Assembly (NCBI GenBank): GCA_041671505.1
Contig: JBAZBK010000011.1
Span: forward strand, 20,830 to 84,829
Direction of reading: 5' to 3'
Origin: Thermoanaerobaculia bacterium
GTDB lineage: Bacteria; Acidobacteriota; Thermoanaerobaculia; Gp7-AA8
Length of the DNA stretch: 64,000 nt
A program made the position numbers and the translations under genes. The notes beneath the pieces are model-generated. The model did no database searches. It was not told the origin of the DNA and was given only the letters and a program-made list of their open reading frames with translations. Below are positions 7,367 through 59,773 of this stretch, in pieces. Each line of letters opens with the position of its first letter. Position 1 is the stretch's first letter.

Positions 7367-8500
7367 ATGGGTATCTCGGGAAATCTCCGCACTATGGCAC
7401 CGGGCGATCTGCTCCAGTGGCTCAACTTTGCCCAGAAAACGGGAACCCTCGTTTTGACGCAGGGCGGAGTGGAGAAGAAGATCTTTTTCCGCGAGGGGCG
7501 GGTGATCTCCTCCGCGTCGACCGACCCGCGCGAGTACCTCGGCCAGTTCCTCATGAGCCACGGCTACATCACCGAGGAACAGCTGACGAAAGCGATGCAG
7601 GAGCAGGCGCGCACCAAGCGGCTGCTCGGCAGGATCCTCGTCGATCTCGGTGTGATCTCCGAAAAAGATCTCGGCCGCCTGATGCGCGAAAAGGCCGAGG
7701 AGTCGATCTACGAGATCTTTCTCTGGAGAGAGGCGGAGTTTCACTTCATCGACGACGAGCTTCCGAGCATGGAGATGGTCCCGCTGCAGATCGACGTGAC
7801 CGGAATCATCATGGAGGGATCGCGGCGCATCGACGAATGGAAGCGGATCACGCGGCTCGTGCCCGATCGCGAGGCGGTGCCGGAAGTGATCTCGCCGATC
7901 GACTCCGCGTCGCTGCATGAAGTCCCGAGGCGGATCGTCGAGGCGGTGAACGGACATCGCTCGATCGAGGAGCTGATCCTGGAGAGCCGCTCGTCGCATT
8001 TCAAAGTGGCGAAGACGGTCTGTGAATTCGTCGAAGCAGGGTTCATGCGCGTGGGCAAGCGGATTCAGCCTCCCGTGCGCACGCCGAGCGCGGAGGTTCG
8101 GGCCGTCAGAACCGAGGCGGATGAGCTCTCGTCGCTTCTCAATCACGCGCAGGAAGCGTTGAGAGCGAGCGATTTCGACAAGACGCTGCGGATGCTCAAG
8201 GCTGCGCAGAACGTCGACCCGACCAATCCCAAGGTCGCGAGCGCGCTCAAAGGCGCATCCGCCATGATCCTGAACGCGCTCGAGGCGGAGGGGATCGTTC
8301 CGAAGAAAGTCCCGAAACTCGTGAAGGACTTCGATGAGATCAGTCAGATGAACTTCACGCCTAACGAAGGGTTCATGATCTCGCGCATCAATGGAACATG
8401 GGACATCGGCTCGATCTTGAAAATCAGCCCGCTTCGGGAGATCGATTCGCTGCTCATCCTTCGCAAGCTCCAGCGCGACGGGATCGTGAAGTTGATTTGA
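7367..8500 (+). CDS. PATAN/DUF4388 domain-containing protein
   Basis: N-terminus MGISGNLRTMAPGDLLQWLNFAQKTGTLVLTQGGVEKKIFFREGRVISSASTDPREYLGQFLMSHGYITEEQL is a typical DUF4388 signature. The ORF is open from 7145, but the upstream part looks non-coding, so the ATG at 7367 was chosen. Confidence 0.75.
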   Translation: MGISGNLRTMAPGDLLQWLNFAQKTGTLVLTQGGVEKKIFFREGRVISSASTDPREYLGQFLMSHGYITEEQLTKAMQEQARTKRLLGRILVDLGVISEKDLGRLMREKAEESIYEIFLWREAEFHFIDDELPSMEMVPLQIDVTGIIMEGSRRIDEWKRITRLVPDREAVPEVISPIDSASLHEVPRRIVEAVNGHRSIEELILESRSSHFKVAKTVCEFVEAGFMRVGKRIQPPVRTPSAEVRAVRTEADELSSLLNHAQEALRASDFDKTLRMLKAAQNVDPTNPKVASALKGASAMILNALEAEGIVPKKVPKLVKDFDEISQMNFTPNEGFMISRINGTWDIGSILKISPLREIDSLLILRKLQRDGIVKLI

Positions 8501-8754
8501 GGCAGGCGAGAGGCGAAGGGCGAGAGGCGATGAGCAGGCAGCGAGCGGCTCGGGGTTTCGGTCCTGCTTCGTGGCTGACTTGAGGCAGGCGAAGGGCGAG
8601 AGGCGATGAGCAGGCGACGAAAGGCCTGGCGGTTCGATCCTGCGTCTTAAGCTGAATCCGATCGAATCGCGATTTCCGACACAGAGTGCGACGCGTGCAG
8701 TCGCCCAAGGCTCCTGACTGCTCATCGCCTCTCGCCCTTCGCCTCTCGCCTCGC
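8498..8754. repeat. Heptamer-array inverted repeat, GGCGARR family, locus A (two direct arms plus one inverted arm)
   Basis: Arm 1 at 8505-8539 reads GGCGAGA GGCGAAG GGCGAGA GGCGATG AGCAGGC. Arm 2 at 8588-8615 is the same minus one unit. The inverted arm at 8718-8754 reads CTGCT CATCGCC TCTCGCC CTTCGCC TCTCGCC TCGC. The reverse complement of 8722-8754 matches 8505-8537 perfectly (33 nt). Confidence 0.9.
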
Positions 8755-9227
8755 TACTCGAGCCCGACCTTCGCTCTGATTCTCGTCTCCAGCGCATTCA
8801 TCTCGCCGTCGTCGGTCTCGTGGTCGTAGCCGAGGGCGTGGATGAGGCCGTGCAGGAGCAGGTAGCGCACTTCGGTGGTGAGTGAGTGGCGTTCGTCCCG
8901 CGCCTGGCGCCGGGCCTGCGGCAGCGAGATCACGATCTCTCCGAGCGAGTGGTCGCCGACGTCGGCGGAATCGATGTCGATCCCCTCGAACGTGAGGACA
9001 TCGGTCGTCTTGTCCTTCCCTCGGTAGGCGCGGTTCAGCTTCCGCATCGCGGAGTCGTCGACGAAGGCGATCGACACCTCGTCGACGGGCTTCCTGACCG
9101 CACCGGCGGCATCGAGCCGCGCGAGGCAGCGGCGCACGAACGCGCCGAGATCCTTGCGCGACAGGCCGCGCACGGCGGGGCCGGAGACGTCGACTTCAGT
9201 TCCTGCGGTCTGCGTTCTGCTCTTCAC
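8754..9227 (-). CDS. ybeY: Endoribonuclease YbeY (rRNA maturation factor)
   Basis: The zinc-binding motif HGLIHALGYDH is present. Size (157 aa) and position downstream of phoH match the conserved phoH-ybeY pair. Confidence 0.9.
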   Translation of the reverse strand: MKSRTQTAGTEVDVSGPAVRGLSRKDLGAFVRRCLARLDAAGAVRKPVDEVSIAFVDDSAMRKLNRAYRGKDKTTDVLTFEGIDIDSADVGDHSLGEIVISLPQARRQARDERHSLTTEVRYLLLHGLIHALGYDHETDDGEMNALETRIRAKVGLE

Positions 9228-11117: not shown

Positions 11118-11120
11118 CGG

Positions 11121-18810: not shown

Positions 18811-19891
18811 GTTTCCAGGTCTCAGCCGCGACATCGTGTCGTTCGGCTTCGTGAGGGACGTGAGCATCGACGGTGGCGCGGTGTCGTTCACCCTCAAGTT
18901 TTCCACCGAGAATCCGCAGATCGCGCAGCAGGTGGAAGCGCAGGCGCGCGAGGCGATCGGTCGCCTTGCCGGCGTGACGAAGGTCGAGGTGAACGTGGAA
19001 GTAGGCTCGCGGGCAGCGACTGCTTCGGTCGCCGCAGGCCCGCTGCGCTCTCTCGAACGGGTGAAATACCTGATCGCCGTCGCCTCGGGCAAGGGGGGAG
19101 TCGGCAAGTCGACCGTCTCGACAAACCTCTCGCTCGCCCTCACGAAGCTCGGCCACAAGGTCGGCCTGCTCGATGCCGACATCTACGGCCCGTCGCAGCA
19201 GATGATGCTCGGCATCGAGGGACGGCCGCAGATCGACGAGAGCGACGAGAAGATCATTCCGATGGAGCGGCACGGCGTGAAGATGATGTCGCTCGGACTG
19301 ATCACCGAGCCCGACACGCCGGTCATCTGGCGTGGGCCGATGGTGATGAAAGCGCTCGAGCAGTTCCTCGTCGACGTGAAGTGGGGCGAGCTCGACTTCC
19401 TCGTGATCGACCTTCCGCCGGGCACTGGCGACGCGCAGCTGACGATCACCCAGAAGGTGCCGCTCACCGGCGCCGTCATCGTGACGACGCCGCAGGACGT
19501 CGCCCTCATCGACGCGCGCAAGGGGCTCGCGATGTTCCGCAAGGTGAACGTGCCGGTTCTCGGGATCATCGAGAACATGAGCTACTTCATCTGTCGGCAC
19601 TGCGGCGAGCGCGAGGAGATCTTCGGGCATGGCGGCGGGCAGAAGACCGCCGAGCGTCTTGGCGTTCCGTTCCTCGGCGAGGTCCCGATCGATCCGAAGG
19701 TCGTCGTCGGCGGCGACTCCGGCGAGCCGATCGTCAGCCTCGATCCCGATTCACCCGCGACGGCGGCATTCATCAGCCTCGCGAAGCAAGTGAGCGACGC
19801 TGTTCGATTTCGCCCGCCCGCTGATTTCGGCGGCCACGACCACGACCATGACCACGATCACGGCCATGGGGGCCACGACCACACGCATTAG
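18767..19891 (+). CDS. apbC: Mrp/NBP35 (ApbC) iron-sulfur cluster carrier ATPase with an N-terminal DUF59-like domain and a His/Asp-rich tail
   Basis: Contains the deviant Walker A (ASGKGGVGKST) and the CxxC motif (FICRHCGE). The N-terminus is MISEQQVLDALRVVKFPGLSRDIVSFGFV and the C-terminal tail is GGHDHDHDHDHGHGGHDHTH. Confidence 0.9.
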   Translation: MISEQQVLDALRVVKFPGLSRDIVSFGFVRDVSIDGGAVSFTLKFSTENPQIAQQVEAQAREAIGRLAGVTKVEVNVEVGSRAATASVAAGPLRSLERVKYLIAVASGKGGVGKSTVSTNLSLALTKLGHKVGLLDADIYGPSQQMMLGIEGRPQIDESDEKIIPMERHGVKMMSLGLITEPDTPVIWRGPMVMKALEQFLVDVKWGELDFLVIDLPPGTGDAQLTITQKVPLTGAVIVTTPQDVALIDARKGLAMFRKVNVPVLGIIENMSYFICRHCGEREEIFGHGGGQKTAERLGVPFLGEVPIDPKVVVGGDSGEPIVSLDPDSPATAAFISLAKQVSDAVRFRPPADFGGHDHDHDHDHGHGGHDHTH

Positions 19892-20003
19892 AACGCGGAA
19901 CCGAGAAGCGAGCTTCTCGTTGATATGAAAGAAGAGGGCCGCCGATATCCGGCGGCCCTTCGTTCATTCCTTGTTCTGTCTTACGGTTTCGCGTTCCGCG
20001 TTC
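19891..20003. repeat. Heptamer-type inverted repeat, GAACGCG family, locus G
   Basis: The outer arms GAACGCGGAA (19891-19900) and TTCCGCGTTC (19994-20003) are perfectly complementary, and each overlaps a stop codon of the convergent genes. The right arm reads CGGTTTCGCGTTCCGCGTTC. Two nested hairpins lie at 19902-19919 and 19936-19958. Confidence 0.8.
19936..19958. terminator. GC-rich hairpin between convergent apbC and the DUF2378-like gene (candidate bidirectional terminator)
   Basis: A 9-bp perfect stem (GGGCCGCCG / CGGCGGCCC) with an ATATC loop. The flanks are only weakly A/T-rich (GAAAGAAGA on the left, TTCGTTCATT on the right). Confidence 0.5.
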
Positions 20004-20604
20004 AATCGTCCCAGCGAAGGTCCCACTCGCAGTGGGCGGCGCCGCGGGTCATGCACACGTCGTGCGCAATCTTGACGTTCTTTACCTTCGTCATCTCCGC
20101 GAGCCCCTGGCACCAGCCGGTGAGCCGTGCGCAGTGCGCCTTCTCCGACGGGAAGTCCTTGAGCTGAAAGCGCACGTGGGTCTTCGACTGGTCGAGGATG
20201 ACGAGCTTTCCGGTGTTGTGAATCGAGCTCCAGAACGTTCCGACCTTTGCGATGAGCGAAGGAGGCGTCAGGGCCATGAGAAAGACGCGATACATGCCGA
20301 CCGAGTCGGCGAGCTCGGTGAGGCCGGCGCGTCTGCCGAACGTGTCGAGGTCTTCGCCTTTCGCCTTCGCTCCCGCTTCCGTCAGGCGATTGAGCATCGC
20401 TTCGGGTATGGCCAGCGAGGGGATGACCTTCCCTCGCACCAGAGTCGCATCGTCGGGAGAAAGCGTGGCGACGGCCGCGTCGAACTGCTCGCGAGTGAGC
20501 TCCTGCTCGAGGAACTTCACGAGGCTCTTGAGGATGGTTCCCTTCGATGTAGCGATGCCTGAAGTCGTCACGGCGTCCTCCTCGATGCGGCGGTTGAGAC
20601 TCAT
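20002..20604 (-). CDS. DUF2378 (TIGR02265, 'Myxococcus paralogous family')-like / HNOB-V4R-like ligand-binding domain protein
   Basis: The 200 aa protein starts MSLNRRIEED...SKGTILKSLVKFLEQELTREQFDAAV and ends CMTRGAAHCEWDLRW (a V4R-like Cys pair). The ATG at 20604 overlaps the queG stop. The family assignment is from memory only. Confidence 0.5.
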   Translation of the reverse strand: MSLNRRIEEDAVTTSGIATSKGTILKSLVKFLEQELTREQFDAAVATLSPDDATLVRGKVIPSLAIPEAMLNRLTEAGAKAKGEDLDTFGRRAGLTELADSVGMYRVFLMALTPPSLIAKVGTFWSSIHNTGKLVILDQSKTHVRFQLKDFPSEKAHCARLTGWCQGLAEMTKVKNVKIAHDVCMTRGAAHCEWDLRWDD

Positions 20605-21635: not shown

Positions 21636-21694
21636 CTCTTGTGGCGAAGGCCTCCGGCCTGCGCGCAACGGCCGGAGGCCGTTGCCACTAATCG

Positions 21695-22516
21695 CTATGC
21701 GTCGATCCGGTCGAGCAATCCCTGAATCATCGACTCGGGCACGAGTATCGAGCCGATCGTCTTCGGGCCGCCGTTGCCGTGATCGTCCGAACCACCGGTC
21801 GTGAAGAGCCCCCGGTCACGGGCGAGTTTCTCGTAGTAGTCGCGCTGCGGCTCGTCGATGTCGGGATGGCGCGTCTCGATGCCGTCGATGCCGGCTTCGA
21901 TCAGCTCGTTCACGATGCGGCGGTGGTCGCGGTAAACCGAGGGATGCGCAACGGAGGTCACGCCACCCGCGTTGCGCACGAGCTCGACGACCTCGTCGAT
22001 CCGGAATCGCTGCTTGTCGACGAACGCGGGGCGTCCGTCGCCGAGGAACTTCCTGAAGGCGGTATCGAGGGAGTCGACGGCGCCCATCTCGACGAGAGCT
22101 CGCGCGACGTGAGGCCGGCCCAGCGCGCCGTTGCCGGCGATCTCGCGGACCCTCTCGATGCTCACCGGGTATCCGAGCTCGCGGAGGCGCTCGACCATCA
22201 TCTCACCGCGCGTGTCGCGCGTCCTGCGAAACGAGGCAAGGCGCGATTCGAGATCAGGATCGTCGAGGTCGACGCCGTACGCCAGTACATGTACGTCGAC
22301 ACCGTCGTGCTGGCACGAGAGCTCGGTGCCCGGGACGAGAACGATCCCGCGCGAGCGCGCGTACGACGCCGTCTCCCGCGACGCGGTCAGGTTGTCGTGA
22401 TCGCTGATGCTGAGGATCGAGATACCGGCCGCGACCGCGCGATCGACGAGATCCCGCGGCTCGTAGAGCCCATCGGAATGCCTGGTGTGGGTGTGAAGAT
22501 CGGCGACGCGTCCCAT
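21695..22516 (-). CDS. PHP domain metal-dependent phosphoesterase (TrpH/YciV-like)
   Basis: MGRVADLHTHTRHSDGLYEPRDLVDRAVAAGISILSISDHDNL carries the PHP H-x-H and DH motifs. The ATG at 22516 was chosen, and the upstream ORF extension lies in the repeat region. Confidence 0.8.
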   Translation of the reverse strand: MGRVADLHTHTRHSDGLYEPRDLVDRAVAAGISILSISDHDNLTASRETASYARSRGIVLVPGTELSCQHDGVDVHVLAYGVDLDDPDLESRLASFRRTRDTRGEMMVERLRELGYPVSIERVREIAGNGALGRPHVARALVEMGAVDSLDTAFRKFLGDGRPAFVDKQRFRIDEVVELVRNAGGVTSVAHPSVYRDHRRIVNELIEAGIDGIETRHPDIDEPQRDYYEKLARDRGLFTTGGSDDHGNGGPKTIGSILVPESMIQGLLDRIDA

Positions 22517-22536: not shown

Positions 22537-22697
22537 GGAACGCGGAACTGGAAACGCGAAACGCGGCACCGAATTGTGTCGGAATCGTCGGCGGGATCGA
22601 GAGACACGAAAACAAAAAGGAGAGAGCAAGCCTTTGCTGCCGGCGCTGCTCTCTCCCTTTCGCGGTTTCGCGTTCCGCGTTATGCGTTCCGCGTTTC
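22537..22697. repeat. Heptamer-array inverted repeat, GAACGCG family, locus H
   Basis: The left arm at 22538-22565 reads GAACGCG GAACTGG AAACGCG AAACGCG. The right arm at 22661-22695 reads CGCGGTT TCGCGTT CCGCGTT ATGCGTT CCGCGTT and runs into the stop codon at 22697-22699. A nested inverted repeat GGAGAGAGCA / TGCTCTCTCC lies at 22619-22656. Confidence 0.85.
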
Positions 22698-22999
22698 TAC
22701 CGGATTGCCTTGCCGGCGCTGATGAGGGCGTTGCCGGTTGCGCGGCGGGCCTTCTTCACGACCGGGGCTGCCGCGTCCTTCGCATCTTCTGCGACGCGGA
22801 CTGCGGTCTTCTTGACCTTCGCGGCGACCCTCGCCGTCGTTTTCTTCGCCGCCTTGATCTTCGGAGCGGCGGCCTTCTTCACGGCCTTGATCTTCGGCGC
22901 GGCCGCCTTCTTCACCGCCTTGACCGCGTTTGCGGTCGTCTTCTTGGCAGTGGCCGTCATCTTGTTGACTTTCTTCTTGATCTCTTTTTTAGTCACCAT
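22697..22999 (-). CDS. Histone H1-like Lys/Ala-rich DNA-binding protein
   Basis: The 100 aa protein is extremely K/A-rich (KKTTANAVKAVKKAAAPKIKAVKKAAAPKIKAAKKTTARVAAKVKK). This composition is typical of bacterial H1/Hc1/AlgP-like proteins. Confidence 0.7.
   Translation of the reverse strand: MVTKKEIKKKVNKMTATAKKTTANAVKAVKKAAAPKIKAVKKAAAPKIKAAKKTTARVAAKVKKTAVRVAEDAKDAAAPVVKKARRATGNALISAGKAIR
22851..22924. repeat. 33-bp tandem repeat (2.2 copies) inside the H1-like gene
   Basis: GCCTTGATCTTCGGAGCGGCGGCCTTCTTCACG (22851-22883) is repeated with 3 mismatches at 22884-22916, with a partial third copy after it. It encodes the 11-aa unit AVKKAAAPKIK. Confidence 0.85.
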
Positions 23000-25962: not shown

Positions 25963-26092
25963 GCGATTTCGGATATCGGATATCGGATTTCGGATTTGAG
26001 AGGTGCGCGGAGTGCGCCAGGTGAGGCCGTTGACGCGGATCGATCAGGTGGGCGAAGCCAAATCCGAATTCCGCAATCCGAAATTCGAAATC
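25963..26092. repeat. Heptamer-array inverted repeat, CGGATWT family, locus I
   Basis: The left arm at 25963-25997 reads GCGATTT CGGATAT CGGATAT CGGATTT CGGATTT. The right arm at 26060-26092 reads AAATCCG AATTCCG CAATCCG AAATTCG AAATC and ends at the mltD-like stop codon (26091-26093). Confidence 0.85.
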
Positions 26093-32511: not shown

Positions 32512-32636
32512 AGGCCGGGCGCGGGCCCTGGCTCGTTCACGTTCACGGGATTTTCACTCCCGTTTCAGTCGCACTGAACGACGCTGCTCGCGCCCGGGCT
32601 GTTCCGTGAACGTGAACGCTTCCGAGCCCGAGCCCG
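32512..32636. repeat. Nested inverted repeat between the STAS and PP2C genes, locus L (hexamer-type arms)
   Basis: CGTTCACGTTCACGG (32534-32548) and CCGTGAACGTGAACG (32604-32618) are a perfect 15-bp inverted repeat built from 2 x GTTCAC. Outer GC-rich arms (GCCGGGCGCGGGCC at ~32514 and GCGCGCCCGGGC at ~32589) are present. A run GAGCCCGAGCCCGG followed by TTTTT lies at 32624-32642. Confidence 0.7.
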
Positions 32637-32744
32637 GTTTTTCTTCGCAGTCCCGCATCACCCCGGCGTTCCCGCGTCCAGCAGGTCTCGCTCGGACGAG
32701 CTCACCAGAACCCGCGGCCCTCCTTTCCCGTATCCAACATCACG

Positions 32745-34484: not shown

Positions 34485-34530
34485 ACCACTGCTCACCACC
34501 TGATGGCCTCGAGTTAAGAGCGGAGCTACC

Positions 34531-34624
34531 GAAGTTAGAAGTTAGAACGATGAATGTTGAATCCAGAAAAGCCGCTACGGCTTCTCTTCTGGATTCTCAA
34601 TTCATCGTTCATCGTTCTAACTTC
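34531..34624. repeat. Heptamer-array hairpin, GAANNNN family, locus J (AT-rich)
   Basis: The left arm reads GAAGTTA GAAGTTA GAACGAT GAATGTT GAATCCA GAAAAGC CG. After a 3-4 nt loop, the right arm has reverse complement GAAGTTA GAACGAT GAACGAT GAATTGA GAATCCA GAAGAGA AGCCG. Confidence 0.9.
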
Positions 34625-34657
34625 AAGTTTGCTTCAGTTGACCTAAGGCCATTGTGC

Positions 34658-35440: not shown

Positions 35441-35480
35441 CGTGATGGTGCTCCCGGCGGCGAGTGTACCTATGAATGCA

Positions 35481-35678
35481 GGCGAGAGGCGATAGGCGAG
35501 AGGCGATAGGCGAGAGGCGATGAGCCGGCCACCGCCGTCTGCGTCGGCAAAGTTCATGTCTCGGGCCGCGGAAGTCAGCGACCGTGCGCGGGACCGCACC
35601 AGCCTCCGGCGTCTGGTGCTGCCCGGCATTCCGCAATCCCGCTCCCCTCGTCGCCTCCCGCCTGTCGCCTCTCGCCTC
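35481..35678. repeat. Heptamer-array inverted repeat, GGCGARR family, locus B
   Basis: The left arm at 35481-35529 reads GGCGAGA GGCGATA GGCGAGA GGCGATA GGCGAGA GGCGATG AGCCGGC. The right arm at 35649-35678 reads CGTCGCC TCCCGCC TGTCGCC TCTCGCC TC. The centre is ~120 nt and unique. Confidence 0.9.
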
Positions 35679-35710: not shown

Positions 35711-36826
35711 TTGGACATTGTGATCATGGCCATGAGAGGCGCGACTCTCGAGGATGCGCTCCACGCCCGCACGACAGAGAGCCGCGAGCTCGTGGAGGCG
35801 CTCGACGCCGGCGCGATCCGCTGCGTCGCGTGCGCTCATCGATGCCGCATTCAGCCGGGGCATGCCGGTGTCTGCAGGATCCGCTGGAACGACGAAGGGA
35901 AGCTGATGGTTCCGCGAGGGTACGTCGCGGGCATCGCCGTCGACCCGATCGAGAAGAAGCCGTTCTTTCACGCCTACCCTGGCGCGAACGCGCTGTCGTT
36001 CGGCATGCTCGGCTGCGACTACAAGTGCGGCTACTGCCAGAACTGGATCACCTCGCAGTCGTTGCGCGACCCCGTCGCGGGAGCGGAGCCCCGCGACATC
36101 GAGCCCGAAGAGATCATCGCGCTCGCGAAGAAGCACCACGCGCGCGTTCTCACCTCGACGTACAACGAGCCGCTTATCACCTCCGAGTGGGCCGTCGAGG
36201 TCTTCCGTCTCGGAAAGGCCGAAGGTCTTGCGTGCTCGTACGTGTCGAACGGCAACGGGACTCCCGAGGTGATCGAGTACATTGCTCCCTGGGTCGACCT
36301 CTACAAGATCGATCTCAAGGCCTTCGACGAGACGAGTTACCGGAAGTTAGGCGGCAGGCTCGGCCCGGTGCTCGACACGATCCGCGAGATTCACCGGCGA
36401 GGCATCTGGCTCGAGGTGCTGACGCTCGTCGTGCCCGGATTCAATTCGTCGGACGAGGAGCTGACGAAGATCGCGGAGTTCGTCGCGAGCGTCGATCCGC
36501 GGATTCCGTGGCATATCACCGCGTTCCACCAGGACTACAAGATGACGGCCAACGACGATACCGATGCCGGCACGCTGATGCGGGCGTGGAAGATCGGACG
36601 GAGTGCCGGACTGCACTACGTCTATCCGGGCAACATCCCTGGCGTGTTCGGCGATCTCGAAGGAACCCATTGCCCGTCGTGCGCAAAGCTCGTGGTCGGG
36701 CGTATCGGTTTCCGCGTCACGGCCTACCGGCTTCGCGACGGCTGCTGCCCCGATTGCGGCGAGCGCATCCCGGGGCGTTGGGCCGAGCCGGGCGACAACG
36801 GCGCCCGTCCGCGCGCCGTGTTCTGA
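35711..36826 (+). CDS. AmmeMemoRadiSam-system-type radical SAM enzyme (pyruvate formate-lyase activase-related)
   Basis: Contains the N-terminal Cys cluster IRCVACAHRCRIQPGHAGVCRIR, the segment DPIEKKPFFH, the radical SAM motif CDYKCGYCQNW, and the C-terminal pair CPSC...CPDCG. Family naming is from memory, and the exact start is uncertain (35711 or the Met codons a few positions downstream). Confidence 0.8.
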   Translation: MDIVIMAMRGATLEDALHARTTESRELVEALDAGAIRCVACAHRCRIQPGHAGVCRIRWNDEGKLMVPRGYVAGIAVDPIEKKPFFHAYPGANALSFGMLGCDYKCGYCQNWITSQSLRDPVAGAEPRDIEPEEIIALAKKHHARVLTSTYNEPLITSEWAVEVFRLGKAEGLACSYVSNGNGTPEVIEYIAPWVDLYKIDLKAFDETSYRKLGGRLGPVLDTIREIHRRGIWLEVLTLVVPGFNSSDEELTKIAEFVASVDPRIPWHITAFHQDYKMTANDDTDAGTLMRAWKIGRSAGLHYVYPGNIPGVFGDLEGTHCPSCAKLVVGRIGFRVTAYRLRDGCCPDCGERIPGRWAEPGDNGARPRAVF

Positions 36827-36827
36827 T

Positions 36828-36957
36828 ATGGAGTGCGCAAGCGAGGCTTGCGCTCTTCCACGCCGAAGCGAAGCTTCGGCGGTCAACTCCGATCGACGTT
36901 AGGCGGAAGCTGCGCTTCCGCCTGGAAGGGCGCAAGCTGCGCTTGCGCACTCCACAT
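36828..36957. repeat. Compound palindromic element between convergent genes, locus M (not heptamer-periodic)
   Basis: The arm at 36828-36882 reads ATGGAGTGCGCAAGCGAGGCTTGCGCTCTTCCACGCCGAAGCGAAGCTTCGGCGG. It is ~85% complementary to the arm at 36902-36957. Each arm also contains two local hairpins (GCGCAAGC/GCTTGCGC and GCCGAAGC/GCTTCGGC). Confidence 0.85.
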
Positions 36958-36960
36958 CAC

Positions 36961-38389: not shown

Positions 38390-38980
38390 TCAGTAAACGA
38401 ACGGGATGAACCGCTTCGTTCGACGCATGTACTCGCGGTACGGCTCGCCGAGAGTCTCGACGAGCGCGATCTCTTCGGCGCGAACCCTTCGACTGTAGGC
38501 GCATGCGCTCAGCCCCATGAGAGCTGCGACGCTCAGCAGACTGCCAAGCGCGATTCCAACGCCGAGGAAGAGCAGGAGTCCCGCGGCGTAGGAAGGATGG
38601 CGAACCCAGCGGTACGGGCCGTCCTGGATGACGGGCTGGTCTTGAGTGACGGTCACCGTGCCGGTGAAATGGCGGCCGAGGGTCCGAAAGCAGATCCGGC
38701 GGAGCACGCCACCAGAAAGGAGCAGCAGAGTGCCGACAACGAGCGCGGCGCGCGGTTGAGGAATCAGCCCCCACGGCACGAACGCGAGGCCGAATGCGAG
38801 AACGATCGCGGTCTGGTTCGCGATGAGGATGAAGCGCATCGTCCCCTGATCCTGCGGGCCCGGCTCGCTCGAGAGCGACTTCCGGATGAGCTTTCCCTCC
38901 GCGACGAAGGCCCAGACGTAGATGATCCAGAAGGCGATTGCTTCCGGGTAGCGGAAGACCGGCGGGACGTTGATCTGCAT
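38390..38980 (-). CDS. Isoprenylcysteine carboxyl methyltransferase (ICMT)/phospholipid methyltransferase family membrane protein
   Basis: Has multiple TM helices and the family motif GPYRWVRHPSYAAGLLLFLG, followed by EE..L...LG..Y..Y near the C-terminus. Confidence 0.8.
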   Translation of the reverse strand: MQINVPPVFRYPEAIAFWIIYVWAFVAEGKLIRKSLSSEPGPQDQGTMRFILIANQTAIVLAFGLAFVPWGLIPQPRAALVVGTLLLLSGGVLRRICFRTLGRHFTGTVTVTQDQPVIQDGPYRWVRHPSYAAGLLLFLGVGIALGSLLSVAALMGLSACAYSRRVRAEEIALVETLGEPYREYMRRTKRFIPFVY

Positions 38981-41034: not shown

Positions 41035-41339
41035 GGCTCTTCCTTTCTCCACGCCTGCAGACACCCGTCAGCCGAAGGGTTGGATGCAGGCTGGGCTCTG
41101 CTCCACGAGGGGGACGCGCGAGGCGGCCGCACGCAAATCACGCGACGTTGGAGCAGTGCTCAGACGGGAGAGAGAGCCCGAGGGCTACGCGCGCCAGAAC
41201 CGGCGGTGCTGGGAATGCAGGCGGGGGACGTGGAGGAGAACGAAGGTACCGCTGTCCATGACCCTAACATGCATCCGCGCGGGCGAAACGTCAAGCTATC
41301 GAGAGGTGGATTGCGATGGGAGAGCGTGGAAAGGGCTGG

Positions 41340-41450
41340 GGAGCAAGGAGAAAGGAACAAGGAGCAAGGAGAAAGGGGAAGGGGACAAGGAGAAGGGATG
41401 CCACCGAGGGTCGGGTTCCCTTCTCCGTGCTCCTTTCTCCTTTCTCCTTC
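41340..41450. repeat. Heptamer-array hairpin, GGAGMAA family, locus K
   Basis: The left arm at 41340-41397 reads GGAGCAA GGAGAAA GGAACAA GGAGCAA GGAGAAA GGGGAAG GGGACAA GGAGAAG GG. After a ~20 nt loop, the right arm at 41418-41450 reads CCCTTCTCC GTGCTCC TTTCTCC TTTCTCC TTC and ends 4 nt before the ychF stop. Confidence 0.9.
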
Positions 41451-41454
41451 GGCC

Positions 41455-42540
41455 TCACCCGTGCCGGATGTTCATGATGTCGCCGTCCTGGACGACGTAG
41501 GTCTTGCCTTCGAGCTGCCAGTGGCCCGACTCCTTCGCCTTTGCGAACGACCCGCCGGCGGAGAGGAAGTCGTTCCAGTGCACCACCTCAGAGCGAATGA
41601 ACTTGGCATAGAAGTCGGAGTGGATCACTCCCGCCGCCTCCTGCGCCGTCATGCCGACGCGGATCGTCCAGGCCCGGCACTCGTCTTCGCCCACCGTCAG
41701 GAACGACTGCAGCCCGAGAAGCGCGTACGCCTCGCGGATCAGGGTGTCGAGCGCCGACTCCTCGATCCCGTACTCGTCCATGAAGACGCGCGCCTCCTCG
41801 GCCGACAGCGCCGAGATCTCCATGTCGATCTTGCCGAAGAATCCGAGCACGCGTGTGCGCAGCCCGGCCTTCGCCGCGGAGATGAGGGCGACCTCCTCCT
41901 TCAGGATCGGCTGCTGCGTCTCGTCGAGATTCAACGCGATCAGCATCGGCTTGAGTGACAGGAGCTGATAGGTCTTGAGGAGGTGAAGCTCGTCCTTCGA
42001 CAGGTCTTCGTTGCGGAGAGGCTTCTCCTCCTGCAGCCACGCGAGGCACTTCTCGAGGACCGGAAGCTCTTTCTTCATCAGCTCGTCGTGCGTGCGGCCG
42101 AGCTGCTTCCTGATCTTCTCGATGCGCGGCTCGAGCACCGCCATGTCGGCGATGATGAATTCGGTGTCGAGCGTCGTGACGTCGCGCAGCGGGTCGATCG
42201 TCCTGTCGGGATGCGGCACGGTGTCGTCCTGGAAGAGCCGGACGACGTGGATCATTGCGTCGTTCGTTTTCACCGCGGAAAAGAAGCCTGTCGTGAACTG
42301 TGTCGTGCCGCTCGAGCCCTTCTTCAGGCCGACGACGTCGACGAAGTCGATCGTGGCGTGGACCGTGCTTTTCGGCTTGAAGATTTCGGCGCTCTTCTCC
42401 AGCCGGGCGTCGGGGATCTTCACGATCCCGTGGTGCGGATCACCCTTGGCCAGCGTCGCCGCGTCGATGTGAGTTTTCGTGACCGCCTGGAACAGGGTCG
42501 ATTTTCCGGAGAAGGGGAGCCCGACGATGCCGATCTGCAT
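41455..42540 (-). CDS. ychF: Ribosome-binding ATPase YchF
   Basis: MQIGIVGLPFSGKSTLFQAVT (G1 motif) is present. The 361 aa protein has the TGS-like C-terminus ending DGDIMNIRHG. Confidence 0.92.
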   Translation of the reverse strand: MQIGIVGLPFSGKSTLFQAVTKTHIDAATLAKGDPHHGIVKIPDARLEKSAEIFKPKSTVHATIDFVDVVGLKKGSSGTTQFTTGFFSAVKTNDAMIHVVRLFQDDTVPHPDRTIDPLRDVTTLDTEFIIADMAVLEPRIEKIRKQLGRTHDELMKKELPVLEKCLAWLQEEKPLRNEDLSKDELHLLKTYQLLSLKPMLIALNLDETQQPILKEEVALISAAKAGLRTRVLGFFGKIDMEISALSAEEARVFMDEYGIEESALDTLIREAYALLGLQSFLTVGEDECRAWTIRVGMTAQEAAGVIHSDFYAKFIRSEVVHWNDFLSAGGSFAKAKESGHWQLEGKTYVVQDGDIMNIRHG

Positions 42541-42574
42541 GGAGTGAATACCTCAGGTTCGCGACGTTATCGCA

Positions 42575-42748
42575 GGCGGGAGGCGAAAGGCGAGAGGCGA
42601 TGAGGCGAGAGGCGATGATGCGAGAGTTCAAGGGGGCTTCCGATTCGTCCAATCCGAGGCCGAAGTCCGTAGGATTCGTGGCGGGTCAGAGCGACTGCGG
42701 CAGGCACCGCGCCTGCTCATCGCCTCTCGCCTTTCGCCTCTCGCCTCG
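42575..42748. repeat. Heptamer-array inverted repeat, GGCGARR family, locus C
   Basis: The left arm at 42575-42624 reads GGCGGGA GGCGAAA GGCGAGA GGCGATG, then a 1-nt slip (A), then GGCGAGA GGCGATG ATGCGAG. The right arm at 42711-42748 reads GCCTGCT CATCGCC TCTCGCC TTTCGCC TCTCGCC TCG. Confidence 0.9.
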
Positions 42749-43771: not shown

Positions 43772-43773
43772 TG

Positions 43774-43911
43774 CCGAATTCCGAGTTCTGAGTGCTGAGG
43801 ATCTCGCCGCTGTCAGCGTTTCTGGGGCGTGCTCCATGGGCGCTGTTGCCTGCTGATCGCCTCTCGCCCGTCGCCTCTTGCCTTGCCTGCTATGGCCTCT
43901 GGCCTATGGCC
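43774..43911. repeat. Two heptamer arrays without mutual complementarity, locus D
   Basis: The left array at 43774-43808 reads CCGAATT CCGAGTT CTGAGTG CTGAGGA TCTCGCC. The right array at 43848-43910 reads GCCTGCT GATCGCC TCTCGCC CGTCGCC TCTTGCC TTGCCTG CTATGGC CTCTGGC CTATGGC. Together they fill the spacer between two stop codons. Confidence 0.85.
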
Positions 43912-43915
43912 CGCC

Positions 43916-50892: not shown

Positions 50893-51198
50893 GCAGGCGC
50901 GAGGCGACAGGCGAGAGGCGATAAGCAGGCCAAAGGCCAGAGGCCAGAGGCCAAAGCAGGCAGTGGATTCGGAGCGCCGGCGCAAGCCGGCGTTTTCTAG
51001 TTGTAGCGCCCGTGTTCCTTCGGAAGGTCGGCGAGCGTCACGCCCGCGGAGCGCTTCGTCTCGCTGCCCTCCGGTAAGACGCCTCTATGCCTGCGCGGGC
51101 CGCGGGTGCTACGAGCGGTGCCTCGCGAACACGACCGCTCGCGCCTGCTTTGGCCTTTGGCCTGCTTATCGCCTCTCGCCTATCGCCTGTCGCCTGTA
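50893..51198. repeat. Composite heptamer-array inverted repeat (GGCGARR plus GGCCARA units), locus E
   Basis: The left arm at 50896-50961 reads GGCGCGA GGCGACA GGCGAGA GGCGATA AGCAGGC CAAAGGC CAGAGGC CAGAGGC CAAAGCA GGC. The right arm at 51143-51198 reads GCCTGCT TTGGCCT TTGGCCT GCTTATC GCCTCTC GCCTATC GCCTGTC GCCTGTA. The centre is ~180 nt. Confidence 0.9.
50975..50996 (+). terminator. Rho-independent terminator of dnaJ, nested in the centre of repeat E
   Basis: A CGCCGGC stem, GCAA loop, GCCGGCG stem and TTTT tract. Confidence 0.7.
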
Positions 51199-52097: not shown

Positions 52098-53386
<1,289 letters not shown>

Positions 53387-56782: not shown

Positions 56783-57005
56783 TTCCAGACTCACTCTCCA
56801 CACGCGGCGAGGAGGCGGCCCGAAGCGTCGAATTTGGTGCGGCGTGCCGTCGATCTTCGTTTTTTGTGAGATGGCTCACGTTACCTGCCGGAAGGAGTAC
56901 TATCTTTAGTTGCAACGAACATAGCGGGTACCGGTTCGGCACGAACCCGTACCCATGAAAAGCGAAGGGGCGTAGAGCCCCTTTTGTGTTTCGAGGAGGT
57001 TTTTC

Positions 57006-57884: not shown

Positions 57885-57907
57885 ACCCTCCCTGCCGGCC
57901 GGCCTGC

Positions 57908-57943
57908 GAGACGACCCCGTGCAACCGGGGTCGTCTCTTTTTT
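57908..57943 (+). terminator. Rho-independent terminator
   Basis: A 12-bp perfect stem (GAGACGACCCCG / CGGGGTCGTCTC) with a 6-nt loop, followed by TTTTTT, 24 nt after the lipoprotein stop. Confidence 0.85.
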
Positions 57944-57996
57944 GTTCATCGCGTATTTGAAGCCTCACAGCGGCGGGGCGCCGCTATGATTCCTCG

Positions 57997-59610
57997 ATGC
58001 TTCGGCTGCTCCCTCGAACTCTTCAGCAGAATCCCCGGCTGCGGAGGCTCGTGCTTCCTTCGGTCGCGATCGCGCTGGCGTCGATCCTCTGCGCCGTTGT
58101 GATCCACTTCGCCTCGAGTGTCGAAGGGAGCGTTTCAGATCGCGCCATGCGTCTCGCAGGAATGGGAGACTTCGAGGCGGCCGACAGGCTCTTCGTCGAG
58201 GCGCTCTCGGCGAAGGCCGACTTCGAGACGCTGATTGCCTTCATCGACAACCGGGCCGCGATCGTGCAGCTCGGCGAGGCCTCCCGCCTTGCGGCGCCGC
58301 AGGAGGCACCGCGCGTGTCGGGTGGCGACGAGCTCGTCGAGCGTTACCTCTCGAGCCCGGGCATGAGCGAGGCCGAGGCGCGCATGGCGCGCTACTGGTT
58401 CGAGGTGAGGTTGCGCGATCCTGGCACCGACTCGCGCCCGGTGGTCGTGCTCGCAGACCTGACCCCCCCGGAGAGGCACGCCAATCAGCTGCTCGCGCGG
58501 GCGGCGATGCTGAACGACGACCTCGGTGAGGCTGCGCGTCGATACGAGCGTGAAGGGCTGGCGTTTCCGCGAGAGGCGGAAGGCGATCTCGAGCGCGCGC
58601 TCGCGCTGTGGAAGGAGCTCGGCGCGTGGGATGAGATTCGTGCCCGGATCGATGATCCGCGCTTCCGCAGCGTGGTCGGTCCGAGGCTCCGTGTGACCGT
58701 CGCAGAGCACGATCGCGACTGGCCGCTGCTCCTTCTATGGATCTGGCCCGCGAGCTTCGAGGGGATCGGCGCGTGGCCCGTCGCGCTCGCCGCACTGTCG
58801 GCGGTTCTCTGGTTTCTGATCGTCGCCACTCTCGGCCGGATGTCCGAGCCGGAGCGCGGGCGGCGGCTGCTGTACGTTGCGGCGTTCGCGCTCGGCGTGC
58901 TCAGCGTCTACCCGACGCTACTGGTGATCACGGCCGAGGAGTCGATCTGGAGTCTCCGCCAGGTCGGGGAGATCATCCCCGACGCGATCTACTTCGTGTT
59001 CGGCGTCGGATTGCGGGAGGAGGCGTGCAAGCTGCTGCTCTTTCTGCCGCTGCTGCCACTTCTCCGGCGTCGGGGATCGCGGCTGGAGGCGCTGACTTGT
59101 GGCGCGCTCGTTGGACTCGGCTTCGCGGCCGAAGAGAACGTTCTCTACTTCCAGAGCTTCGACGTGTCGGTCGCCCTGACTCGATTTCTGACGGCGAATC
59201 TTTTGCACGTGTCGCTCACGGCGCTCGCCGCGCTGGCCGTCTACGATGCCTCCAGGGCCTGGAACCGCTCGACGGAGATCCTCAACGCGACGCTGCCGAT
59301 GGTCGTCCTGCTGCACGGCGGCTACGATTTCCTGCTGTCGAGCCCGCAGCTCGGCGAGTTGTCGTTTCTCTCCATGACCCTGTTCGTGCTGATCGCACAG
59401 CGCTTCCTGCGAGAGTTCACGAACCTTTCCACTGCACTGGAGCAGGAGAGGGTCCTGCGCTTGTTCGTCGTCGCGATCTCTCTCATCACCGGCGCGTCGT
59501 ACATCTACGCGACGACTCTCGTCGGACCGCTCCTCGGCTTCGCCTACGTCGCTACCGGCCTTCTCGGTGTCGCGATCTTCGTCTACATGTTCGTCAGGGA
59601 GTTGGCGTGA
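57997..59610 (+). CDS. PrsW-family intramembrane metalloprotease with a ~250-aa N-terminal extension
   Basis: The C-terminal multi-TM region has PrsW-type motifs (REEACKLL, GLGFAAEENVLYF, ANLLHVSLTA, HGGYD). The N-terminal part has one TM helix plus a helical soluble region. Confidence 0.65.
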   Translation: MLRLLPRTLQQNPRLRRLVLPSVAIALASILCAVVIHFASSVEGSVSDRAMRLAGMGDFEAADRLFVEALSAKADFETLIAFIDNRAAIVQLGEASRLAAPQEAPRVSGGDELVERYLSSPGMSEAEARMARYWFEVRLRDPGTDSRPVVVLADLTPPERHANQLLARAAMLNDDLGEAARRYEREGLAFPREAEGDLERALALWKELGAWDEIRARIDDPRFRSVVGPRLRVTVAEHDRDWPLLLLWIWPASFEGIGAWPVALAALSAVLWFLIVATLGRMSEPERGRRLLYVAAFALGVLSVYPTLLVITAEESIWSLRQVGEIIPDAIYFVFGVGLREEACKLLLFLPLLPLLRRRGSRLEALTCGALVGLGFAAEENVLYFQSFDVSVALTRFLTANLLHVSLTALAALAVYDASRAWNRSTEILNATLPMVVLLHGGYDFLLSSPQLGELSFLSMTLFVLIAQRFLREFTNLSTALEQERVLRLFVVAISLITGASYIYATTLVGPLLGFAYVATGLLGVAIFVYMFVRELA

Positions 59611-59773
59611 GGGAGGCGAGAGGCGGAAGGCGAGAGGCGAGAGGCGAGGGGCGAAAGGCGAGAGGCGAGAGGCGAAAGGCGATGAGGAGGCAGCGCTTCG
59701 GTGACTAAGGGCTCCGCAACGTTTGGATAGTCGGCGCTCCTGCCTGCTTGTCGCCTCTCGCCTGTCGCCTTCG
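59611..59773. repeat. Heptamer-array inverted repeat, GGCGARR family, locus F (asymmetric arms)
   Basis: The left arm at 59615-59691 has ten GGCGxxx units (GAGA, GGAA, GAGA, GAGA, GAGG, GAAA, GAGA, GAGA, GAAA, GATG) plus AGGAGGC. The right arm at 59742-59773 reads GCCTGCT TGTCGCC TCTCGCC TGTCGCC TTCG. The element starts at the PrsW stop and ends 2 nt before the MFS stop. Confidence 0.9.

Follow-up and report, generated by a model that had tools for sequence, protein, structure and literature searches.

Intergenic hairpins with heptanucleotide-array arms in a Thermoanaerobaculia-like Acidobacteriota genome

Period-7 arrays and intergenic hairpins are confirmed as genuine in a 64-kb stretch (the window) of a Thermoanaerobaculia-like Acidobacteriota genome, where at least six unrelated unit sequences coexist within one architecture. 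On balance, these elements probably form a REP/BIME-like population of small palindromic repeats, intergenic and non-coding, that was amplified in this lineage and has spread into tolerated sites.

Arrays and elements between genes

The initial annotation of this DNA had set intergenic enrichment over dinucleotide shuffles as a check, and the enrichment was found: lag-7 autocorrelation in the intergenic DNA of the window is 0.343 against 0.272 ± 0.006 in shuffles (z = 11.8), with further peaks at the harmonic lags 14 and 21, and the coding DNA of the window has no lag-7 signal (0.258). Our own scan of the window at periods 3–12 gave seven arrays scoring 12 or more at period 7, versus 0–2 at each other period. 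Period-7 arrays occur at 14.1 per 100 kb in the window and at 0.3 per 100 kb in 754 kb of other Acidobacteriota contigs, a sign of lineage specificity. TRF recovered period-7 arrays with the claimed units at all loci for which they had been reported (8504/8725, 22539/22665, 25965/26060, 34531/34601, 35480/35642, 41340/41417, 42574/42720, 43890, 50894/50927/51148/51169 and 59613/59751). As a caveat to the 3–10 units originally given, the arrays at 19.9 and 34.5 kb are short, with about 2–3 units only.

On the revised gene map, 13 of the 37 spacers that measure at least 40 nt bear an element. Ten elements are long hairpins whose arms are heptad arrays, two are related nested palindromes that lack the period, and in one spacer the arrays are not complementary. 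All 13 are listed below in window coordinates, with no strand assigned to any; I numbers denote inverted repeats and z is the folding z-score.

8501–8753, GGCGAGA-family element filling the convergent DUF4388/ybeY spacer from stop to stop; left arm as two direct copies (8504–8541 and 8587–8613), right arm 8714–8751, with identical arm unit strings; I3 97% and I12 100% complementary; RNA z = −7.1
19889–20004, GAACGCG-type element between a convergent mrp/apbC-like gene and an unnamed gene, both stop codons overlapped by its short degenerate arms; terminator-like hairpin in the centre (19935–19959); RNA z = −6.0, DNA z = −6.98
22537–22696, GAACGCG-type element in a tandem (− strand) spacer; arms 22539–22571 and 22663–22695, the right arm adjoining the stop of gene 22697–22999; − strand hairpin and T-run in the centre; I14, I23; RNA z = −3.6
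25965–26092, CGGATAT/CGGATTT element; arms 25965–25998 and 26059–26092, the right arm overlapping the SLT-LysM gene stop; I7, 85%; DNA z = −3.94
32515–32637, nested palindrome without 7-nt period, GTTCACGTTCACGG type, downstream of the STAS gene; member of a dispersed family; I8; RNA z = −2.8
34497–34650, GAAGTTA/CGATGAA composite between convergent spoIIE-like and enoyl-CoA hydratase genes; core 34531–34624; I5, I13; DNA z = −9.03
35480–35678, GGCGAGA-family element in the divergent hydratase/radical-SAM spacer; arms 35480–35524 and 35642–35678; I9, 90%, and I16, 93%
36824–36959, nested palindrome without 7-nt period, filling the convergent radical-SAM/MBL spacer; termini TGAT(R)TGGAGTGCGC; I1; DNA z = −12.22
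41334–41460, GGAGAAA/GGAGCAA hairpin directly 3′ of the stop of ychF (− strand); arms 41340–41398 and 41417–41449 around an 18-nt loop; several registers (I4, I11, I15, I24); DNA z = −4.95
42574–42747, GGCGAGA-family element in the divergent ychF/Rieske spacer; arms 42574–42626 and 42716–42747; I6, 97%
43772–43915, two non-complementary arrays adjoining both stops of a convergent pair: a CCGAATT/CTGAGTG-type array (43772–43800) and a composite GGCCAKA plus GGCGAGA solo arm (43847–43915), G-rich on the − strand
50894–51197, nested element in the convergent dnaJ/prmA spacer; GGCGAGA outer arms 50894–50923 and 51167–51197, inner GGCCAGA arms 50927–50956 and 51148–51163; dnaJ terminator-like hairpin in the centre (about 50971–51000); the right arm encodes the last prmA codons; I2, 92%; RNA z = −8.6
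59613–59772, GGCGAGA-family element between convergent prsW and MFS genes; left arm 59613–59689 (about 10.6 units), right arm 59737–59772 (about 3 units); several registers (I10, I20–22); RNA z = −4.3

Elements occupy seven of the eight convergent spacers and six of the 29 others (Fisher p = 0.0011). Ten or eleven of the 13 touch a stop codon; eleven were originally claimed. The elements at 35.5 and 42.6 kb sit in divergent (5′) spacers; the start of the hydratase gene at 35.5 kb was set from its Pfam match. No transposase or other mobilising gene was found in the window, and the neighbours of the elements are ordinary housekeeping genes.

Variation among related genomes

Arms gain or lose 7- or 14-nt units between relatives. 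The left arm of the prsW–MFS element counts 10.6 units in the window against 4 in genome L001, the 35.5-kb element has 6 units as against 19 in its L199 orthologue, and the inner arm at dnaJ–prmA differs by about two units between the window and L001; unit-number polymorphism at orthologous spacers, proposed earlier as a check, is thereby documented. A variant unit at dnaJ–prmA changed from GGCGACA to GGCGACG in both arms between two genomes.

Some sites are empty in L203 and L002, where the spacers are 5–6 nt long or the genes overlap. In L203 the 36.9-kb site is a 6-nt spacer and the 43.8-kb site a 5-nt spacer, and no target-site duplication was evident when filled and empty sites were compared. 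A second copy of the 36.9-kb palindrome lies 3′ of ychF in L199. Unit families also differ among genomes at the ychF 3′ end (GGAGAAA type, 36.9-kb type or GGCGAGA type), in the spoIIE–ECH spacer (GAAGTTA, GCCTTCT or GGCGAAG), in the STAS–spoIIE spacer (32.5-kb type or GAACGCG) and at the prsW 3′ end (GGCGAGA or GGTCAWA), and such same-site replacement is seen between genomes about 89% identical in DNA. Nesting recurs as well: a 32.5-type element lies within GGCGAGA arms in L199 and L095, and GAAGTTA within GTTGTTA arms in L026.

The 34.5-kb composite recurs at a non-orthologous locus of L026 with more than 90% identity. Within the window the statement that centres share no similarity stands; inner stems, however, are specific to a family, as this recurring core illustrates. 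Among three genomes, 31 of 33 and 28 of 29 arm positions of the 42.6-kb element are invariant, versus roughly 30 of 110 in its centre. The prsW element is retained in relatives down to 66% protein identity.

Folding, arm sequence and competing explanations

These elements account for 23 of the 25 longest inverted repeats in the window with arms within 450 nt, and the same arms pair in multiple registers, as had been described. Folding exceeds that of shuffles, with z-scores of −2.0 to −12 for RNA and −3.9 to −12.2 for DNA. The elements at 32.5 and 36.9 kb are indeed related nested hairpins without 7-nt periodicity (I8 and I1), and the 43.8-kb spacer, whose arrays had been called non-complementary, shows no folding beyond shuffles (z = −0.1 for RNA, +1.17 for DNA). 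RNA stability has no sense-strand bias among the elements; the antisense RNA of tandem spacers folds equally well or better. Canonical terminator-like hairpins lie within element centres, upstream of the second arm.

A role as bidirectional terminator or 3′ stabiliser is possible. That the elements are dedicated, selected bidirectional terminators or mRNA 3′-end stabilisers, with arrays simply being the fastest way for mutation to lengthen a stem, is in our judgement unlikely, despite the occupied convergent spacers, the abutted stop codons, the very stable folding energies and the persistence of the prsW–MFS and ychF–Rieske elements in diverged relatives. For cyanobacterial STRR hairpins, too, a part in termination or in the stability of transcripts has been proposed (PMC2670836). 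However, the terminators precede the second arm and should therefore release the main transcript before a long stem can form. In addition, two elements lie in divergent 5′ spacers, arrays in one convergent spacer are not complementary, antisense RNA folds no worse than sense in tandem spacers, mismatches between arms are tolerated at unit position 6 with the core fixed, and convergent spacers of 5–6 nt suffice in relatives.

The arm sequences themselves are strongly patterned. The 55 GGCGANA units all agree at positions 1–4, and 51 of them have A at position 5; position 7 is restricted to A or G, and position 6 is unconstrained. Between the two arms the core shows no mismatch in 76 comparisons and position 6 shows 7 in 19, so that sequence rather than pairing is conserved. 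The main-family arm module reads (stop)-R(1–3 nt)-GCAGGCG-(AGAGGCG)n-ATG-AGCAGGC, its middle being the tandem heptanucleotide array, and its termini are common to six window loci and to other genomes. The G-rich arm comes first in 47 of 50 pairs, across phyla.

This pattern could point to arrays that serve as platforms for a protein or filament reading single- or double-stranded nucleic acid in 7-nt steps, with the hairpin secondary, and we regard this as quite improbable. The invariant GGCG core with one free position, and the conservation of arms but not of centres, fit the earlier proposal of binding arrays; Xanthomonas units likewise combine a conserved core with free positions (PMC4692102), and cold-shock domain proteins bind heptamer repeats, one per heptamer (PMC4679880). 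Against the proposal, different unit families replace one another at the same site. To read at least six unrelated units within one architecture in 64 kb, more than one protein, or one that recognises shape, would be required, and no candidate protein was identified. Nor is GGCGANA privileged: in a large collection, heptamers made by scrambling its bases occur in arrays at about the same rate.

A purely local origin without mobility, by which terminator hairpins grow outward in 7-nt slippage steps and hairpin-templated strand switching copies one arm to the other, has a small probability. Differing unit numbers between arms and between orthologues, the paired GGCGACA-to-GGCGACG change, concentric shells around terminators and the over-representation of heptamer SSRs in many bacteria, for which polymerase slippage has been proposed (PMC4679880, PMC4692102), are all consistent with it. 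It leaves unexplained, however, the identical arm termini at six window loci and in other genomes, the complex non-periodic palindromes at different sites, the more than 90% identical composite at a non-orthologous locus and family replacement between closely similar genomes. G-quadruplexes or other non-B DNA, proposed for G-rich heptamers of Xanthomonas and Nostoc and motivated by G-rich arrays near ORF ends (PMC4692102), are very improbable here: G runs reach GG at most in GGCGAGA, GGCCAGA and GGAGAAA and are absent from GAAGTTA, GAACGCG and CGGATAT, so three-tetrad structures cannot form, and what unites all families is that the second arm is complementary; G tracts are not common to them.

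We therefore favour dispersed hairpin repeats that grow by slippage. A REP/MITE-like family was one of three roles proposed initially and is the best supported, by unit polymorphism, empty sites, replacement, nesting and the composite at non-orthologous loci. Each arm would be a copy of a family-specific module, gaining and losing units presumably through slipped-strand mispairing in 7-nt steps. Spread may involve a trans-acting copying or transposition activity, or recombination between copies, with insertion where it is tolerated, at gene 3′ ends and above all in convergent spacers. With the G-rich arm 5′, any transcript would meet the purine-rich arm first, and the C-rich arm would pair on emergence. 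Because ordinary terminators lie inside the centres, bracketed and apparently not replaced by the elements, the long hairpin would form only in read-through RNA or single-stranded DNA, and a host benefit, if any, would most likely be a fail-safe bidirectional barrier to read-through or a structure protecting 3′ ends. This explanation leaves the strict preference for 7 nt unaccounted for, and the conserved 42.6-kb arms and the persistent prsW element could, judging from sequence comparison, instead mean a direct function.

Comparison with known repeat systems

REP, BIME and REPIN sequences of proteobacteria are short, abundant intergenic repeats, often in inverted pairs with long hairpins; a single REP is by itself imperfectly palindromic, is tagged GTAG or CGTC and has no internal tandem periodicity. 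The window elements resemble them in their enrichment after genes and between convergent genes, their mosaic modules, several families per genome and sequences near a family consensus. They differ in that their arms are purine-rich, not self-complementary and internally periodic, and no RAYT gene was seen. With MITEs (Correia, RUP, Nezha) they share a non-coding nature, terminal inverted repeats, insertion polymorphism and nesting. MITE copies share internal sequence, usually with target-site duplications, whereas the window centres are unrelated between loci and target-site duplication is not evident. Centres that are not conserved among copies, unlike those of classical MITEs, and arms that are not self-palindromic, unlike REPs, count against the favoured explanation, as do the lack of a transposase or other mobilising gene in the window and of an evident target-site duplication.

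STRR (short tandemly repeated repetitive) heptanucleotide sequences of heterocystous cyanobacteria were reportedly described by Mazel et al. in 1990. These are 7-bp tandem repeats in several sequence families, intergenic and in some cases hairpin-forming like ours; for hairpins between genes such as hupS and hupL, roles in transcript stability, termination or translational coupling have been proposed, none of them established (PMC2670836). The window elements have neither the STRR1–3 consensus sequences nor a cyanobacterial host, and we found no description of stop-codon-bearing termini, nesting or site replacement for STRRs. For long SSRs with 5–11-nt units, Mrazek et al. (2007) are reported to have found the heptanucleotide class most abundant in many large non-pathogen genomes and to have proposed polymerase slippage as the cause (PMC4679880, PMC4692102). 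Their study regards such arrays as SSRs; the pairing of inverted arrays, the defined arm ends and the dispersal of the window elements exceed simple slippage. TAACTGA repeats of marine Beggiatoaceae are also intergenic heptamer arrays, of 2–6 units and with a patchy cross-phylum distribution, but they are direct repeats just upstream of start codons, with one inverted case only (PMC4679880), in contrast to the inverted pairs of the window.

A close likeness is to the GGGAATC arrays of Xanthomonas campestris and X. axonopodis (Rehm et al. 2015, PLoS One), and the kind of element is not new: the earlier view that it belongs to no described family is contradicted by these paired convergent heptamer arrays at ORF 3′ ends (PMC4692102) and by the STRR hairpins (PMC2670836). 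In the Xanthomonas arrays, heptamers that keep a constant core and leave one or two positions free are repeated in tandem, and most arrays come as convergently oriented, stem-loop-capable pairs. They lie on average 28 nt from the upstream ORF, near its 3′ end, and are under-represented in divergent spacers; 89–93% are intergenic, each genome has 70–75 convergent pairs, and unit number varies between species at the same genes, with no role established (PMC4692102). The window elements belong to another phylum and have other unit sequences, which are not G4-capable. They further differ from the Xanthomonas arrays in the coexistence and mutual nesting of several unrelated unit families, in arms that end in defined non-repeat sequence containing or adjoining a stop codon, and in the evidence for family replacement and for empty sites.

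Intergenic heptad arrays and their hairpins

The heptanucleotide arrays that the initial annotation described in the intergenic DNA of the window are real. Tandem Repeats Finder recovered period-7 arrays with the annotated units at every locus named, and in a simple periodic-run scan seven arrays of period 7 reached a score of at least 12, compared with zero to two at each of the other periods within 3–12. The window has a G+C content of 65%, and its genes were mapped from codon usage, with a Pfam check on 27 of them. The lag-7 autocorrelation of intergenic DNA was 0.343, versus 0.272 ± 0.006 in dinucleotide-preserving shuffles (z = 11.8), with harmonics at lag 14 (z = 5.1) and lag 21 (z = 5.3). 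Coding DNA gave a period-3 signal only, so the period-7 signal is intergenic only.

The arrays are also paired as inverted repeats, as had been claimed: these elements account for 23 of the 25 longest inverted repeats with arms up to 450 nt apart, and the same arms were seen to pair in multiple registers shifted by 7 nt. Element-bearing spacers, compared with shuffles, gave folding z-scores of −2.0 to −12 as RNA and of −4.95, −9.03, −6.98, −3.94 and −12.22 as single-stranded DNA. At 43.8 kb, where the arrays had been described as non-complementary, there are indeed two unrelated arrays that do not fold (z = −0.1 and +1.17). Taken together, the autocorrelation, inverted-repeat, folding and spacer results confirm the observation, with small caveats. 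The arrays at 19.9 and 34.5 kb have only 2–3 units. The statement that the centres (the sequences between the two arms) share no similarity holds between loci but not throughout, as some sequence is family-specific and inner stems are common within some families. No Rfam match was obtained at gathering score over the whole window, and a tRNA and tmRNA scan of the window found nothing. Other tandem repeats were noticed:

22842–22923: 33-nt tandem repeat, 2.5 copies, 89% match, inside the small gene 22697–22999, which has only a weak apolipoprotein-like repeat match; a coding 11-residue repeat
35734–35816: 42-nt tandem duplication, two copies, 80% match, at the start of a radical-SAM gene just past the 35.5 kb element
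19834–19868: period-6/18 repeat (CCACGA) at the 3' end of an Mrp/ApbC-like gene just ahead of the 19.9 kb element, probably encoding a His/Asp-rich tail

Every arm of the main family (GGCGAGA/GGCGANA units), read in its G-rich direction, starts with GCAGGCG within 1–3 nt of a stop codon and ends with a GGCGAT(G/A) unit followed by AGCAGGC; these termini also occur in related genomes. The 55 GGCGANA units have GGCG without exception at positions 1–4 and, in 51 cases, A at position 5; any base can follow at position 6 (G 26, T 14, A 8, C 7), and position 7 takes A or G. When the two arms of a pair are compared, 0 of 76 sites mismatch at positions 1–4 and 7 of 19 at position 6, which shows that the sequence is kept, and not merely the pairing. 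The elements are modular and concentric. At 50.9 kb (the dnaJ-prmA site), GGCGAGA arms enclose GGCCAGA arms, which in turn enclose a centre with the dnaJ terminator-like hairpin, and the 8.5 kb element has two left arms and one right arm.

Elements occupy 13 of the 37 spacers of at least 40 nt in the window gene map, and are concentrated between convergent genes (7 of 8 convergent spacers versus 6 of 29 others; Fisher p = 0.0011). Two of the 13, at 35.5 and 42.6 kb, are flanked by divergent genes, the former being counted as such because the start of the hydratase gene was corrected. Within the window the arms adjoin stop codons, and at 51180–51197 the right arm codes the final codons of prmA. 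Of 93 arrays at the loci fetched for comparison, which span many phyla, 47 lie next to a sense-strand stop (−25 to +60 nt); in 24 of the 47, this stop falls 0 to 8 nt ahead of the array. An ORF ends on the opposite side at only 17 of the 93. In a distant relative (L117, 4692–4725), the C-terminus of an MFS protein is coded by arm-like sequence (GAGAGGCGATCAGCGAGAAG). Arrays with T at unit position 6, such as that at 35480–35522, create TAG, TGA and TAA at the junctions GGCGATA-G, GGCGATG-A and GGCGATA-A, and T at this position is present in the terminal unit of nearly every arm. Since 7 is coprime with 3, successive T-bearing units give stops in all three frames.

Elements placed in this way could be dedicated transcription terminators or 3'-end stabilisers, one of the roles originally suggested for them. 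Several centres (19.9, 22.6 and 50.98 kb) contain a GC hairpin with a T run, but this inner hairpin lies upstream of the second arm, so the main transcript should stop before the long stem forms. In the long hairpins the second arm is not followed by a T run, so they do not conform to the definition of an intrinsic terminator, which calls for a GC-rich, short-looped hairpin with a U tract immediately behind it. A consensus terminator scan of the window gave overall counts not clearly above those of shuffles and backs only the individual named sites. Minimum free energies and G-U counts on both strands revealed no sense-strand bias in tandem spacers, a comparison of low power with four spacers. 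We consider a dedicated terminator or stabiliser function unlikely.

Cumulative GC skew climbs almost monotonically over the 64 kb. The plus-strand RNA of most elements is somewhat more stable and has more G-U pairs; a difference in composition between the strands is consistent with this, and selection need not be involved. Hairpins without heptads were also found, which indicates that the genome uses canonical terminators as well:

21636–21694: hairpin with a 21-bp stem, after gene 21695–22516 (z = −4.2)
57908–57937: textbook terminator with a T6 run, after a DUF5666 gene

Lineage density and spread across phyla

The lineage is unusually dense and diverse in these elements, with at least six families of units among about 13 elements in 64 kb. 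Period-7 arrays number 14.1 per 100 kb in the window, versus 0.3 per 100 kb (2 arrays in 754 kb) in other Acidobacteriota contigs, where their rate is the same as that of other periods. These control contigs, which carry 65–71% SPFH orthologues, come from a scan of a metagenome collection with the SPFH protein; as a search for closer relatives, the scan returned only relatives at this level.

Arrays of GGCGANA were found in a genome scan at more than 111 loci in many phyla, in taxa that include Gemmatimonadales, Casimicrobiaceae, Vibrio/Photobacterium, Streptomyces, Roseiflexus, Verrucomicrobiota and Planctomycetota, and many of them share the inverted architecture. A privileged status of this unit across phyla was rejected, as the viral collection held 16 GGCGANA loci versus 33, 18 and 15 for scrambled heptamers of the same composition; these counts indicate that heptad arrays are widespread whatever their sequence. 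Four heptamer patterns were used to fetch 82 loci from the viral collection (L206–L287); these contain 301 period-7 arrays and 41 inverted pairs, so that contigs classed as viral also carry heptad-array hairpins.

The G-rich arm is the 5' arm in all 22 GGCGANN pairs of the fetched loci and, when pairs are counted irrespective of unit, in 47 of 50, among them 14 of the 15 that belong to other families; on the viral contigs it is 5' in 33 of 41 pairs. Since the two strands of an inverted repeat have the same order of arms, a polymerase arriving from either side comes to the G-rich arm first. If this rule and the abutment of stop codons, both observed across many phyla, are upheld in a proper survey, they would constrain all general models.

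On a broader reading, heptad-array hairpins would form a general class of gene-end elements across phyla, with common rules: the G-rich arm would always lie 5', the first arm would begin at a stop codon or only a few nucleotides away, and the unit would have an invariant core of 4–5 nt with a free position. They would be maintained by a trans-acting activity that works in a 7-nt register and would not be by-products of polymerase slippage. The candidates for such an activity are a nucleic-acid-binding protein and a copying or transposition system directed at gene ends or hairpins. We regard this generalisation as quite unlikely. More doubtful still is that the arrays serve simply as binding sites read in 7-nt steps, although the invariant core with its free position lends this some degree of support.

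Change between related genomes

The arrays change in steps of 7 or 14 nt; whole elements are gained and lost at gene ends, where they also nest and take each other's place; and the sequence of a family is maintained while the centres drift. The genomes compared were relatives at approximately 88–91% DNA identity (L001 and L199) and more distant ones (L203, L117, L002, L116 and L118); the best protein matches of the window are in MAGs of Acidobacteriota/Thermoanaerobaculia. Differences in unit number at orthologous spacers were found at the prsW-MFS (59.6 kb), 35.5 kb and dnaJ-prmA sites. The two arms at prsW-MFS have 10.6 and 2.9 units in the window versus 4 and 4.4 in L001, the 35.5 kb element has 6 units in the window versus 19 in L199, and the inner right arm at dnaJ-prmA differs between genomes by a 13-nt indel, about two units. 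In L203, empty sites were found in which the convergent genes flanking the 43.8 and 36.9 kb elements are spaced by 5 and 6 nt, respectively, and in L002 prsW and the MFS gene overlap. No target-site duplication was evident between filled and empty sites, a comparison made between genomes that differ by 10–20% and across junctions that overlap stop codons. At the following sites, one element stands in the place of another:

ychF 3' end: GGAGAAA hairpin in the window; a copy of the 36.9-type palindrome in L199, its terminal TGA being the ychF stop; a degenerate GGCGAGA type in L203
spoIIE-ECH spacer: GAAGTTA, a GCCTTCT-type array of about 17 units, or GGCGAAG, depending on the genome
STAS-spoIIE spacer: 32.5 type or GAACGCG, depending on the genome
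prsW 3' end: GGTCAWA units in L116, GGCGAGA in the others

Elements of the 32.5 type are nested within the centres of GGCGAGA elements in L199 and L095. The 34.5 kb composite has a copy of more than 90% identity at a non-orthologous locus of a Thermoanaerobaculia MAG, between namZ-like and pseudouridine synthase genes, where it is enclosed by additional GTTGTTA arms. Where the same element is retained, the arms are the conserved part. At 42.6 kb, 31 of 33 and 28 of 29 columns are invariant among three genomes in the arms, versus about 30 of 110 in the centre, and at dnaJ-prmA the arms are 93–98% identical around a centre with a 60-nt indel. A variant unit at the latter site has changed from GGCGACA to GGCGACG in both arms, one unit out of register, which fits either compensation or copying from arm to arm.

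Other differences and features were noted in the same comparisons. The approximately 250–290 nt upstream of the SPFH/Band-7 gene (41053–41300) are conserved in L199 and L203 up to the start of the variable ychF 3' element; this stretch has no Rfam match and could be a leader or regulatory RNA. The window has an ICMT/PEMT-family methyltransferase gene (38390–38980) with the SPFH and MBL genes on either side; at the syntenic positions in L199 and L203 this gene is missing and the spacers measure 188 and 131 nt, respectively, a gene-level indel. Four independent short-read contigs with prsW orthologues (L003, L115, L116 and L118) end in or at the heptad array after the stop codon; heptad repeats thus fragment short-read metagenome assemblies.

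We propose that the elements may spread by a trans-acting copying or recombination process into sites where insertion is harmless, and the stop codons carried at their termini would allow a gene to tolerate insertion at its very end. Rho loads on unstructured C-rich RNA (rut sites), and from this general behaviour the G-first order might serve to hide the C-rich arm, which would otherwise be unstructured RNA of the Rho-loading kind. Any benefit to the host could lie in a fail-safe barrier to read-through between convergent genes, or in 3'-end protection. Purely local slippage combined with hairpin-templated copying is very improbable, as it cannot account for the shared termini or for the dispersed complex palindromes. 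The density and diversity of the elements, together with relatives at graded distances that show turnover directly, allow models based on slippage, mobile elements, terminators and binding platforms to be tested against one another.

Comparison with known systems

Two readings, integron attC sites and G-quadruplexes, were set aside on the basis of unit sequences and gene context, the latter being excluded by the unit sequences. REP elements are imperfect palindromes of 20–40 bp with a GTAG or CGTC tag, and the gene for the associated RAYT (a Y1 transposase) is flanked by repeats. Unlike REPs and REPINs, the elements described here have arms that are purine-rich arrays (termini GCAGGCG...AGCAGGC), are not self-complementary and lack a GTAG or CGTC tag. 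No transposase was detected by Pfam in 27 of the approximately 55 window genes, among them every gene flanking an element. Terminal inverted repeats are a likeness to MITEs; however, the internal sequence is not common to the copies, as the centres are unrelated between loci and diverge fast between orthologues, and the likeness extends to shared inner stems in some families only.

Heptanucleotide arrays of the STRR type have reportedly been noted in bacteria since 1990, and a study from 2007 is said to have found heptanucleotide arrays to be the commonest class of long SSR. In heterocystous cyanobacteria the consensus units of STRR1–3 are CCCCAGT, TTGGTCA and CAACAGT. None of these occurs in the window, and the host is a member of the Acidobacteriota; the likeness lies in intergenic tandem heptanucleotides that sometimes form hairpins. 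PMC2670836 places hairpins of the cyanobacterial 7-bp STRR repeats between genes and gives their function as unknown. Heptamer SSRs are over-represented in many bacteria, with polymerase slippage suggested as the cause (Mrazek 2007, as reported in PMC4692102). The TAACTGA heptamers of Beggiatoaceae are direct repeats located upstream of start codons (PMC4679880).

The closest counterpart is in Xanthomonas, where two genomes contain 186 and 183 GGGAATC arrays (Rehm et al. 2015, PMC4692102). These are 89–93% intergenic, at a mean distance of 28 nt from the upstream ORF, and each genome has 70–75 pairs in convergent orientation with the potential to form stem-loops. Their units combine conserved and free positions, the two species differ in unit number, and the authors found no function but proposed a role as G-quadruplexes (PMC4692102). 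The elements described here resemble these paired arrays in their tandem heptamers with a conserved core and variable positions (here GGCGANA, 55 units), their mostly intergenic location near the 3' end of the upstream ORF, their two convergent, stem-loop-capable arrays, one per strand, and their variation in unit number at the same genes among related genomes. They differ in their units (GGCGAGA, GGCCAGA, GAACGCG, CGGATAT, GAAGTTA and GGAGAAA), whereas GGGAATC has G tracts of at least three, which permit G-quadruplexes to form. The initial annotation recognised no described family; with the Xanthomonas paired arrays (PMC4692102) and the STRR hairpins (PMC2670836), the kind has already been described, though it is little studied. 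The elements are thus not categorically new, and the material could help to settle an old question about heptad arrays. What is new in the window, relative to these systems, is the phylum, units that are not of the G-quadruplex kind, several co-resident families, nesting, stop-bearing termini and direct evidence of turnover.
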